This document shows, in pieces, positions 7,925 to 9,704 of a stretch of 64,000 bases of DNA. A program made the position numbers and the translations under genes. The notes under the pieces were generated by a model. It had not been told where the DNA came from and searched no databases. It worked only from the letters and a program-made list of their open reading frames with translations. Position 1 is the first letter of the stretch. Each line of letters starts with the position of its first letter. Origin of the DNA: a virus; IMG/VR virus record IMGVR_UViG_3300045988_090210. One strand, given 5' to 3'.

Positions 7925-8200
7925 ATGGTATACGCAGATTACGCCTCTACTTGTCCTGTAGTTAAGTATCCTCAACAGCTATATCGTAATGTGTTGGGCG
8001 AAGGCTATTTCTTTAACCCCAACGCTAATTATGCTTACAAGGAAAAGCGCCTACTATCTGAAGCAGAAAACAGAGTAAAAAAGGCTATCGGGGCTAAAGA
8101 AGGCAAGGTTGTTTTTGGTGGAACAAGTAGTCAGTTGATTGAGAATTTGATGGCGGCTGTTATTTGTGAACAAATTATAAACAATAAAGAACCTACTTGA
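7925..8200 (+). CDS. cysteine desulfurase (NifS/IscS-like, class V aminotransferase), N-terminal fragment
   Basis: VYADYASTCP... and VVFGGTSSQLIENL match the IscS N-terminus ([23 protein letters not shown]). The ORF stops after ...NNKEPT. Confidence 0.7.
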   Translation: MVYADYASTCPVVKYPQQLYRNVLGEGYFFNPNANYAYKEKRLLSEAENRVKKAIGAKEGKVVFGGTSSQLIENLMAAVICEQIINNKEPT

Positions 8201-8225
8201 CTTTCGATTAAAATTATGGTATAAT
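8197..8225 (+). promoter_or_regulatory. sigma-A type promoter for the HNH endonuclease gene
   Basis: TTGACT (8197-8202), 17-nt spacer, TGgTATAAT (8217-8225). The -35 overlaps the stop codon of the desulfurase N-fragment. Confidence 0.65.
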
Positions 8226-8329
8226 ACAATAAAAGAGGTTAATAAGTAATGGCCATTGCTTATTATTTAAGGAAGGTGCTTATCTCACCTTCCTACTCTT
8301 AATATTATTCTTAGATAAGGAGAATGTAT

Positions 8330-8890
8330 ATGGAAGAGATTTGGAAAGATGTTGTTGAATATGAAGGGTTGTATCAAGTCAGTAATTTAGGAAGAGTTAA
8401 AAGCCTACAAAGAATAGATTCTAATAATCACATTGTAAAAGAGAAAATTAAAAAGTTAAGCACAGACAAAGATGGTTATAAATGTGTATTTCTATCTAAA
8501 GGAAATAAAAATATACAATATAAAGTTCACCGTCTTGTTGCTTTTGCGTTTATCCCTAATCCGGACAATCTCCCTCAGGTAGGGCACAAGGATGAGAGCA
8601 GAGATAATAATATAGTCACAAATTTAGAATGGACTAATTCTAAAGAAAATAATAATATGCCTTTAAGGATTGCAAGAAGCATACAATCTCATAAAGGCCA
8701 AAATAAATACGGAGACAACCCAAGAGCTATTAAAGTTGAATGCGATAATATTGTTTTTGATTGTATTAAACGTTGTGCTGAATACTACAAAGTAAACGAT
8801 AGAACAATGCAACAATGGTTATCAGGAATAAATCCAATGCCACAGTTTTTTCAAGAGAAAGGATTAAAGTATGCTTTGTATAGGGAGTAA
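8330..8890 (+). CDS. HNH homing endonuclease (I-HmuI-like, NUMOD4-type N-terminus)
   Basis: YEGLYQVSNLGRVKS, HRLVAFAF, VGHKDESRDNNIVTNLEWTNSKENN. SD AAGGAG. The 3' end overlaps the downstream desulfurase fragment by 20 nt. Confidence 0.8.
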   Translation: MEEIWKDVVEYEGLYQVSNLGRVKSLQRIDSNNHIVKEKIKKLSTDKDGYKCVFLSKGNKNIQYKVHRLVAFAFIPNPDNLPQVGHKDESRDNNIVTNLEWTNSKENNNMPLRIARSIQSHKGQNKYGDNPRAIKVECDNIVFDCIKRCAEYYKVNDRTMQQWLSGINPMPQFFQEKGLKYALYRE

Positions 8891-9704
8891 TTACGAACAT
8901 GATGCCATAGACCGATGGCTTGATATTCGTGTTTCAAATCTTGAAGAGCTTGAAAAGGCCCTTCAAGATAATCTTAATGATACCAAGTTTGTATTCTGGT
9001 TGGGTGTTTTAAACATTACAGGCGAAATTTTTCCTGTAAAAGATATTGGCCACCTATGCCATAAATATAACGCCTTCTATATTTGTGACGCAACGGCCCT
9101 TTTGGGTCATGCTGCTATCGAACCTAATATCGATGATTGGTGCGATTTTTTAGTTCTTGATGGTCACAAAGCCGGGACTGAACTTGGTATTGGTTGTTGT
9201 TGGGTATCAGATAGGTTAGACAAATGGCTCAATGGGTTCAAGTTACATGGCACACCTAATCTCGCTGGTGCATTAGCTATGACTCAAGCTGTTGAGGATG
9301 CTTGCGACAGCCGTAAGCTCAGCCAAAATAGCGCTCATTATGGGGAGCTGTTAGACTATTTGATTGATGGTTTGATTAAAAAGGATATTGATTTTCAACT
9401 TGTTCCCGAATATGAAGAAAATGAACCTCCCAATAAGTTCGTTTTAGCAATCAACGCCATTCGTCTGCCCGGAATTAATGCCGATTCCCTCCAACAGTAT
9501 CTTGCATCTCAACAAATTTATGTATCTATTGGCGGCTCTGCTTGCGCTGAGAAACATGATTATCGAGTGCTAAATGCTTATGGGCTGAATAATGATGAGG
9601 CCAGTGAGGTTATTAGAGTTAGTTTTGGTGAGGATAGTAGTATTGAGGATGTTAAGGCATTGGTTGAAGGAATTAAGGAATTTCAAGATACTTATGTAAA
9701 GTGA
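8871..9704 (+). CDS. cysteine desulfurase (NifS/IscS-like), C-terminal fragment
   Basis: LCIGSNYEHDAI (compare [11 protein letters not shown]). PLP-Lys motif LDGHKAG. Catalytic-Cys loop SIGGSACAEKH (compare SSGSACTS). Has its own ATG with AAAGGA 7 nt upstream. Confidence 0.75.
   Translation: MLCIGSNYEHDAIDRWLDIRVSNLEELEKALQDNLNDTKFVFWLGVLNITGEIFPVKDIGHLCHKYNAFYICDATALLGHAAIEPNIDDWCDFLVLDGHKAGTELGIGCCWVSDRLDKWLNGFKLHGTPNLAGALAMTQAVEDACDSRKLSQNSAHYGELLDYLIDGLIKKDIDFQLVPEYEENEPPNKFVLAINAIRLPGINADSLQQYLASQQIYVSIGGSACAEKHDYRVLNAYGLNNDEASEVIRVSFGEDSSIEDVKALVEGIKEFQDTYVK

Follow-up and report, generated by a model that had tools for sequence, protein, structure and literature searches.

Genes cut in two by a free-standing homing endonuclease gene are already known from T4-like phages. 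In Aeromonas phage Aeh1, mobE lies inside nrdA, one of the 'genes in pieces' (PMC3045599, PMC2988022). Other cases are the T4 topoisomerase gene 39/60 with mobA, and gene 43 of Aeromonas phage 25, split with seg43(25) (PMC2988022). In both, the split of an essential phage enzyme gene coincides with the position of a free-standing endonuclease gene, and the products assemble after translation. We describe here a related situation in a stretch of viral DNA of 64,000 nucleotides, IMGVR_UViG_3300045988_090210 (hereafter the window; coordinates refer to its + strand unless another locus is named), where the gene of an IscS/NifS-type cysteine desulfurase is interrupted by an HNH endonuclease gene. 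An earlier, sequence-only reading of this DNA had compared the interruption to those of nrdA and gp43, precedents that the papers just cited document. The analysis leaves us largely persuaded that a mobile cassette splits the desulfurase gene into two separately translated pieces.

The nrdA-mobE pair of Aeh1 is the closest precedent. As at the present locus, a free-standing HNH gene splits an enzyme into two separately translated open reading frames (ORFs) that divide the active site between them, and related phages instead carry such an endonuclease at a nearby intergenic site (in T4, mobE lies between nrdA and nrdB). There are also differences. The target is here a desulfurase dependent on pyridoxal 5'-phosphate (PLP), not a ribonucleotide reductase, in phages whose hosts are probably gut Firmicutes; the split extends across a large and diverged clade, while that of Aeh1 belongs to one phage; assembly of Aeh1 NrdA needs tails derived from the insertion, whereas the tails are minimal here; and the endonuclease ORF varies behind a constant leader. 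The mobA and seg43(25) cases differ in their enzyme and endonuclease families, and a conserved leader with swapped endonucleases is not described for them. What goes beyond the described cases is, then, a new class of target enzyme, a split that is fixed over a diverged clade, and a near-invariant leader followed by exchanged ORFs at two positions.

A cysteine desulfurase in two pieces

Judged by alignment, the two ORFs on either side of the endonuclease gene (the N-fragment and the C-fragment, Table 1), once fused, are a complete IscS/NifS-type cysteine desulfurase of the class V aminotransferase fold, as the sequence-only reading had proposed. The fused protein gives a continuous match to Pfam Aminotran_5 (positions 37-371, in one stretch) and aligns to residues 5-374 of Escherichia coli IscS. 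The C-fragment alone matches positions 128-371 of the same family, and the 91-residue N-fragment, searched alone against Pfam, matched no family. The motifs GGTSS, YEHD, ICDAT, GHK and GGSAC each align with their IscS/NifS counterparts in a structure-sequence alignment, including the GHK of the PLP lysine and the GGSAC of the catalytic loop that the sequence-only reading had picked out; the Gln of the IscS 'DATQ' is not conserved. In IscS-type enzymes, the GGTSS helix binds the phosphate of PLP. The N-fragment carries this helix together with the N-terminal arm, and the C-fragment carries the His of YEHD, the Asp of ICDAT, the PLP-binding Lys of GHK and the catalytic Cys of GGSAC. An enzyme with this sequence would be expected to act as a cysteine desulfurase.

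The two borders of the interruption are tight. The TGA stop codon of the N-fragment sits within the -35 hexamer (TTGACT, 8197-8202) of a promoter, and the ATG of the C-fragment (8871), which has its own AAAGGA upstream, is overlapped over 20 nucleotides by the 3' end of the HNH ORF (8890). The reading frame of the C-fragment opens just one codon before this ATG. About 15 residues of the N-fragment lie past its last conserved block and 2 residues of the C-fragment precede the next; the tail of the former and the start of the latter are colinear with the linker of intact alleles, and nothing is left to remove. The fragments abut, with the overlap and the restart signals, as they had been described from the letters alone.

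The junction corresponds to a variable linker, with the conserved block GGTSSQLIENLM on one side and IxSxYEHD on the other. In the best alignment with a Protein Data Bank (PDB) entry (5zsp; ...IINNKEPT / M-LCIGSNYEH against ...IKNGDKDHI-ITTEVEH), the cut stands just upstream of the strand that bears the catalytic His. A structure model of an intact relative (P0002), with a predicted local distance difference test score (pLDDT) of 73.9 overall and about 81-88 near the junction, and a template modelling (TM) score of 0.65-0.69 against IscS structures, displays a helix at 68-80, a loop at 81-83 and a strand at 84-90; its N-terminal arm packs against the C-terminal domain. By this model the cut falls in the loop joining helix and strand, and each product carries part of the active site; the two would have to assemble into an active enzyme.

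Intact, split and downstream-cassette alleles

A protein search with the C-fragment found close relatives, 67-97% identical, falling into two length classes. The best-matching 120 clusters (built at 90% identity) comprise 73 intact proteins (353-378 amino acids), 46 of the split form (265-282 amino acids) and one partial sequence. All proteins of the short class start at one site, M[LIK][CIY][IV]GSxYEHD, or five codons earlier. The sequence-only reading had proposed a comparison with relatives lacking the HNH gene: the intact clusters provide it, and their linker is uninterrupted. At the DNA level, nine of ten relatives from IMG/VR are uninterrupted and one (L009) is split. Further split loci were obtained from contigs fetched for the short-class proteins, which brings the collection to 11 distinct ones: the window, L009 (the same as L012 and L028), L014, L017, L018, L019, L022, L024, L025, L026 and L030. 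Intact and split alleles coexist among close relatives.

The layout is common to all 11 split loci: an N-fragment with its TGA inside TTGAC, a leader, an HNH ORF, and a C-fragment start that falls inside the end of this ORF or adjoins it. The tail of the N-fragment follows the pattern xAxxxEQxxNNKExT, then stop, in every split locus and in no intact allele; over its length, the window N-fragment is 62-93% identical to the other split N-fragments and to the N-termini of intact alleles. What lies between the leader and the C-fragment changes from one locus to another. The window and L009 are identical at 199 of 200 positions from 8132 to 8332, and then continue with unrelated HNH ORFs. Four unrelated types of HNH ORF occupy the gap across the split loci, and three unrelated 3' junctions connect them to the C-fragment (the 20-nucleotide overlap; an ATGA or GTGA overlap with AAGGAG upstream; an ATG five codons earlier). 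Each of these junctions gives the C-fragment an ATG or a GTG within five codons of the same position.

The same promoter-leader, followed by an HNH gene, is also found directly past the stop codon of intact desulfurase genes, in L011 (/L002), L027, L029, L031 and L032. At these loci the -35 hexamer overlaps the last codons of the intact gene (YLDN, then stop). L011 and L029 were recovered by the leader pattern, L031 and L032 by protein and not by the leader; the latter two bear out, in two cases of two checked, the prediction that intact alleles ending in YL[DN]N carry a downstream cassette. At least six types of HNH ORF lie downstream of the leader, at these two alternative positions. Different homing endonuclease genes at one locus are also known among T4-related phages, where SegH and Hef have taken the place of mobC and mobE (Sandegren et al., 2005, as cited in PMC2988022). 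What sets the present case apart is that its HNH ORFs, at least six, stand behind a single, nearly identical promoter-leader, at a locus inside a split gene.

Two further observations concern the N-fragment. A derivation of its tail (..ICEQ..) from the desulfurase C-terminus (..ICEFKK..YLDN) by way of the downstream cassette was considered and dropped: the two have in common only ATTTGTGAA and a loose AT-rich similarity upstream of the -35 hexamer. In the phage of L009 and L028, an ORF for an HNH-AP2 endonuclease (L009 2287-2877) adjoins the N-fragment upstream, with an ATGA stop/start overlap, and the N-fragment is flanked on both sides by endonuclease genes.

Probably two polypeptides rather than an intron

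An HNH ORF within an enzyme gene calls to mind a self-splicing group I (or group II) intron, in which case full-length desulfurase would be made from a spliced messenger. In Bacillus phages, I-HmuI itself is encoded within an intron (PMC2988022). The insertion considered here is placed between conserved blocks of the enzyme gene, and its 5' part is both conserved and structured. Yet this very 5' part also occurs after intact desulfurase stop codons, and no splicing is possible at these downstream-cassette loci because the leader follows the stop of an intact gene and there is no downstream exon. The leader, at about 100 nucleotides, is too short for a group I intron core. On the other side of the endonuclease gene, where the sequence-only reading had seen no structured RNA, there are no non-coding bases at all past the ORF, and the 3' parts of the different gap types, with their unrelated ORFs and unrelated junctions, do not align. 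Every variant keeps the in-frame stop of the N-fragment and the start codon and Shine-Dalgarno sequence (SD) of the C-fragment, and the colinearity of the fragments with the intact linker points the same way. Rfam found no intron, either in the whole window at the gathering threshold or in stretches of 4 kb and 0.77 kb at E <= 10; these scans gave only chance-level matches to microRNA and small nucleolar RNA (snoRNA) models, explained by the leader hairpins. Rfam can miss introns with large ORFs, but a conserved group I catalytic core (P3-P9) common to all copies was found neither by Rfam nor in the alignment of the 3' parts. An intron is, on this evidence, very improbable.

A protein-level equivalent must also be considered. 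In the 'fractured gene' arrangement, known in metagenomes (PMC2677866), split-intein halves surround a free-standing endonuclease and the protein is restored by trans-splicing. The 15 or so residues on the N side and the 2 on the C side offer no room for such halves, and no Hint or intein domain was found in Pfam. We rejected the split intein on these two grounds and give it next to no chance. The split by a free-standing endonuclease gene into two polypeptides, which the sequence-only reading preferred to an intron, draws its support from the leader found behind intact genes, the varied 3' junctions, the negative Rfam scans and the purifying selection that we now consider.

Selection on both fragments

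Ratios of non-synonymous to synonymous divergence (dN/dS) were computed pairwise among ten split loci. At a synonymous divergence (dS) of 0.5-1.7, the N-fragment has a median of 0.15 and the C-fragment one of 0.20, and no frameshift or nonsense mutation was found in either fragment among the split loci compared. By this sequence comparison, both desulfurase fragments show purifying selection. A decaying pseudogene, inactivated by the insertion and reduced to two remnant ORFs without joint function, accounts poorly for such figures. It is true that insertions of homing endonucleases can destroy genes, and that not every phage of this group has the desulfurase, while neighbouring accessory genes vary as well (among them a PAPS-reductase-like gene and one of 147 amino acids). 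Against this, the 11 split loci keep both ORFs open with their start signals despite their divergence, all catalytic residues are kept, and the split form makes up 46 of the best 120 clusters. The homologues do not display the decay that the sequence-only reading had named as the outcome contrary to its own. The locus L018 (2273-3004) points in the same direction: its HNH ORF, of type b, is broken into pieces of 61 and 155 amino acids, with no damage to the leader or to either desulfurase fragment. It resembles an endonuclease degenerating within a stable split gene, unless it reflects an error of assembly. Decay of the desulfurase gene is therefore unlikely.

Selection on the N-fragment also bears on the idea that the C-fragment alone is functional, by itself, with a host partner or in a new role, the N-fragment being kept for some other reason such as the cassette promoter carried by its 3' end. 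The C-fragment does hold the Lys, Cys, His and Asp, and the N-fragment has no Pfam match of its own. Constraint is, however, stronger on the N-fragment than on the C-fragment and extends along its whole length, not just near the promoter; the N-fragment holds the conserved GGTSS helix, and in the model its arm packs against the C-terminal domain. We regard a role for the C-fragment alone as quite unlikely.

Selection for two joint fragments has to be read together with recombination. The first 45 or so residues of the C-fragment are specific to the split form (mean identity about 0.8 among split alleles, 0.5-0.57 for the best intact ones), and this split-specific haplotype is found on recombining backgrounds.

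The cassette promoter and the endonuclease gene

The interruption opens with a sigma-70-type promoter, TTGACT separated by 17 nucleotides from a TATAAT (8220-8225) that is preceded by TG (TGGTATAAT); it is the promoter that the sequence-only reading had reported, its -35 hexamer overlapping the stop of the N-fragment. Sites of the class TTGAC-N15-TGnTATAAT, with at most one mismatch, number seven in the window against 0.25 expected; none of 100 shuffles reached seven, and all seven are oriented with a gene immediately downstream. The cassette promoter, which is conserved in relatives, is more than a chance match, and it would be used by the host's transcription machinery. Two variants of it were met. 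In L030, a 3-nucleotide insertion lengthens the spacer to 20 nucleotides, just after the N-fragment stop near 452 (leader oriented on +); in L031 (3594-3625), the -35 hexamer is TTAACA in place of TTGACA. Downstream of the -10 element, from hairpin 1 onward, both leaders are exactly the commonest variant. Elsewhere in the window, a perfect TTGACA-17-TGcTATAAT promoter (26092-26120) immediately precedes another free-standing HNH gene (26147-26851, +; PHROG 2081), without the conserved leader.

The endonuclease encoded in the desulfurase gap matches NUMOD4 (3.8e-17) and HNH_3 in Pfam, and PHROG 59 at 2.3e-40. Its kinship with I-HmuI, suggested by the sequence-only reading, is clear (PDB 1u3e, E = 1.8e-16), with the catalytic H...N...N motif aligned and intact. 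The N-terminal and HNH domains of I-HmuI, an HNH nicking endonuclease of Bacillus phage SPO1, align with the window protein, whereas its C-terminal DNA-binding part does not; and I-HmuI resides inside a group I intron, while the gene considered here is free-standing. Translation most likely starts at the second ATG (8330): relatives keep this codon without change, and L017 lacks the first ATG. The protein would be an active endonuclease, presumably capable of homing.

A near-invariant leader

Between promoter and endonuclease, the leader is predicted to fold into three hairpins (-31.9 kcal/mol, z = -3.3). The sequence-only reading had noticed one of them, at 8271-8293; it is hairpin 2, and two more are predicted around it, together with a putative upstream ORF (Table 1). 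Hairpin 1 shows covariation: three of its pairs are changed on both sides, 99% of cells are paired, slid controls give no double changes, and L032 contributes a further compensatory pair. Hairpin 2, invariant across all leaders, pairs an SD-like arm with an anti-SD-like arm; the idea that it is an intrinsic terminator was set aside as unlikely, since the terminator scan did not flag it and no U-tract follows. Hairpin 3 would cover the endonuclease SD (AAGGAG, 8317-8322) and the first two bases of the start codon; three one-sided changes leave it paired, and one break occurs in L027. For mobE, which has its own promoters too, for I-TevI and for others, hairpins over the endonuclease ribosome-binding site are described (PMC2988022), and hairpin 3, if it forms, would be the same device. 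The upstream ORF is open, with an ATG or GTG start, in 14 of 14 distinct leader variants. Its start codon is within hairpin 1, and in L017, L029 and L032 the change of ATG to GTG comes with a compensating base on the other arm. Selection on the peptide is inseparable from selection on RNA or DNA because the ORF is mostly invariant at the nucleotide level.

This invariance is that of the leader as a whole. Measured from the -10 element as far as the SD, pairwise distances have a median of 0.02 over the 14 variants, and one of 0.00 over the 59 nucleotides from hairpin 2 to the SD, figures to be read knowing that L027-L030 were fetched by an exact 25-nucleotide match, with identity there by construction; synonymous sites adjoining the leader are near saturation. 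There is one copy of the leader in the 64 kb, and every occurrence in the collections searched is at one of the two desulfurase-gene sites. When IMG/VR was scanned with two different invariant pieces, no contigs came up beyond two already known.

For some of these traits, the nearest analogue in the literature is the promoter-early stem-loop (PeSL) cassette of T4-type phages (PMC2839356, PMC4122927), which combines a strong sigma-70-like promoter and a stem-loop in a short, highly conserved unit beside variable ORFs and serves as a point of homologous exchange in modular shuffling. PeSLs are, however, repeated many times per genome and their stem-loops are terminators, whereas the present leader is unique in 64 kb and tied to HNH genes at two sites around one gene, with hairpins that lie downstream of the promoter, were not flagged in the terminator scan and have no U-tract after them. 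The leader, single-copy and apparently not terminator-like, is not a member of the PeSL class.

A tentative reading, to which we give somewhat less than even credence, is that the leader (about 130 nucleotides, with its three hairpins and 17-codon upstream ORF) is a functional unit by itself: a portable platform on which HNH homing endonuclease genes dock and from which they are expressed. It would keep translation of the endonuclease low or conditional, for instance by coupling it to the upstream ORF, which ends about 15 nucleotides before the hidden SD; it would form, with the C-fragment start, a homology arm for the replacement of one ORF by an unrelated one; and it would have moved between two sites at one gene. 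If this were true, the split PLP enzyme would be stably kept because the platform supplies the stop, the promoter and the restart signals. In any case, the leader is a candidate for an element of regulation and recombination that serves homing endonucleases in gut-Firmicute phages, and we know of no study of such endonuclease control in these phages.

How the split may have arisen and be maintained

The cassette that we propose is lodged in a surface loop of the desulfurase and has three parts: a strong host-type promoter, a structured leader of about 100 nucleotides and a free-standing I-HmuI-like HNH gene. Its 5' end would supply the stop of the N-fragment, as the TGA within the -35 hexamer, and its 3' end would give the C-fragment a ribosome-binding site and a start codon. 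The enzyme would be made as polypeptides of 91 and 277 amino acids that associate to rebuild one active site, with the phosphate-binding helix coming from the first, and the His, Asp, Lys and Cys from the second. Transcription of the N-fragment would begin at promoters further upstream, of which that at 6948 is the nearest; the cassette promoter, together with read-through, would serve the endonuclease, the C-fragment and probably the primase gene. The leader hairpins, one of them over the SD and start of the endonuclease, probably hold its translation low. The split may have arisen once or a few times, most simply by the cassette moving from the site downstream of an intact gene, and would now be maintained throughout the sub-clade, endonuclease ORFs being exchanged between a conserved leader and a conserved C-fragment start.

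Several points weigh against this account. The evidence consists of sequence comparison, computed folds and a predicted structure. The fragments have almost no added tails that could act as assembly domains, unlike Aeh1 NrdA, with only the 2 extra residues at the start of the C-fragment. Past residue 136 or so, the window C-fragment is nearer to intact alleles than to most split ones, and, the locus being mosaic, recombination may have brought part of the constraint, and with it of the dN/dS signal, from intact alleles. The silence of Rfam is weak evidence taken alone, as it extends to another interrupted gene of the window, nrdD, described below. Hairpins 2 and 3, since they do not vary in the way hairpin 1 does, have no support from covariation, and part of the leader's identity is, as said, by construction.

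With these reservations, a PLP-dependent enzyme joins the short list of those that tolerate a split by a mobile endonuclease. Intact alleles, downstream-cassette alleles and 11 diverged split alleles form a natural series in which reassembly with minimal tails, and the exchange and regulation of endonucleases, become directly testable. There is also a warning for annotation: the N-fragment goes without a Pfam match and, in dozens of metagenomic clusters, the C-fragment bears the label of a truncated aminotransferase.

Coordinates and genomic context

Table 1. Features of the split desulfurase locus and of neighbouring or comparable loci
Feature	Position	Strand	Details and basis
SD of the N-fragment, GGAGGG	7915-7920	+	sequence
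Desulfurase N-fragment	7925..8200	+	ATG 7925, TGA 8198-8200, 91 amino acids; ORF
Split-specific N-fragment tail, AAVICEQIINNKEPT plus TGA	8153..8200	+	split-locus comparison
Sigma-70-type promoter, extended -10	8197..8225	+	TTGACT, 17 nucleotides, TGgTATAAT; 11/12 hexamer matches plus TG
Leader hairpin 1	8240..8265	+	11 bp, GGCC loop; minimum-free-energy fold and covariation
Putative upstream ORF, MAIAYYLRKVLISPSYS then stop	8249..8302	+	17 codons; AAGAGG 11 nucleotides upstream of start
Leader hairpin 2, AGGAAGGUG / CACCUUCCU	8270..8294	+	9 bp, 7-nucleotide loop; minimum-free-energy fold
Predicted leader hairpin 3	8302..8331	+	minimum-free-energy fold; weak support
Free-standing HNH homing endonuclease gene, I-HmuI-like	8330..8890	+	186 amino acids; NUMOD4 plus HNH
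C-fragment translation start region	8858..8873	+	AAAGGA (8858-8863), 7 nucleotides, ATG (8871); sequence
Desulfurase C-fragment	8871..9704	+	277 amino acids; Aminotran_5 1.6e-24
GIY-YIG homing endonuclease gene between nrdD-like pieces	22451-23332	+	
PAPS-reductase-like gene	L013 4095-5174; L017 3825-4907; L024 3939-4997; L031 4367-5446		

The window covers the replication and structural region of a phage of about 39% GC, and the samples are human and pig gut metagenomes. Its closest cultured relatives by DNA polymerase (49% identity) are phages of Enterocloster bolteae of about 100 kb. Megablast of positions 7000-10800 against deposited phage genomes gave no match, and tblastn of the fused protein against them gave only matches of at most 27% identity, hence no cultured close relative with this gene. 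A scan of GTDB genomes for the C-fragment found no relative, and hosts are therefore not assigned directly.

Upstream of the desulfurase in all relatives lies a gene (5556-6944, + in the window) for a metallo-beta-lactamase/beta-CASP/RMMBL protein, RNase J/CPSF-like, with faint or weak matches to Anti-Pycsar Apyc1 in precomputed Pfam lists. In several relatives, the gene that follows the desulfurase, directly or past the downstream cassette or a small ORF, and often with overlapping stop and start codons, is the one similar to 3'-phosphoadenosine 5'-phosphosulfate (PAPS) reductase (PP-loop; 352-360 amino acids). This gene hints at a pathway of sulfur transfer or thiolation. The desulfurase may serve Fe-S supply, as the sequence-only reading suggested for the Fe-S proteins encoded in the window, or thiolation, or some other purpose. 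No such gene was found in the window by tblastn (E > 0.1).

Interruptions are met in other genes as well. In the Enterocloster phages CB457P2 and CB473P1-P3 (OP172753-OP172757), the match to a Pol III alpha-like polymerase comes in three pieces, with 'DNA endonuclease' genes under the match; the window polymerase (14887-18798) is uninterrupted. In this phage group, genes seem often to be broken up by endonucleases. In the window, an nrdD-like gene for the large subunit of anaerobic ribonucleotide reductase (21805-24861, +) is in two pieces, 21805-22362 and 23452-24861, which abut exactly on the structure of Thermotoga maritima NrdD (residues 4-172 and 171-647) and have a GIY-YIG endonuclease gene between them. 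Rfam found no intron in this gap. Unlike in the desulfurase gap, non-coding segments of 89 and 120 nucleotides flank the endonuclease ORF, and the 3' part holds AAAUAUAGUCAGUCC, which resembles a group I P7 element; the interruption of nrdD may be an intron or a free-standing endonuclease gene.

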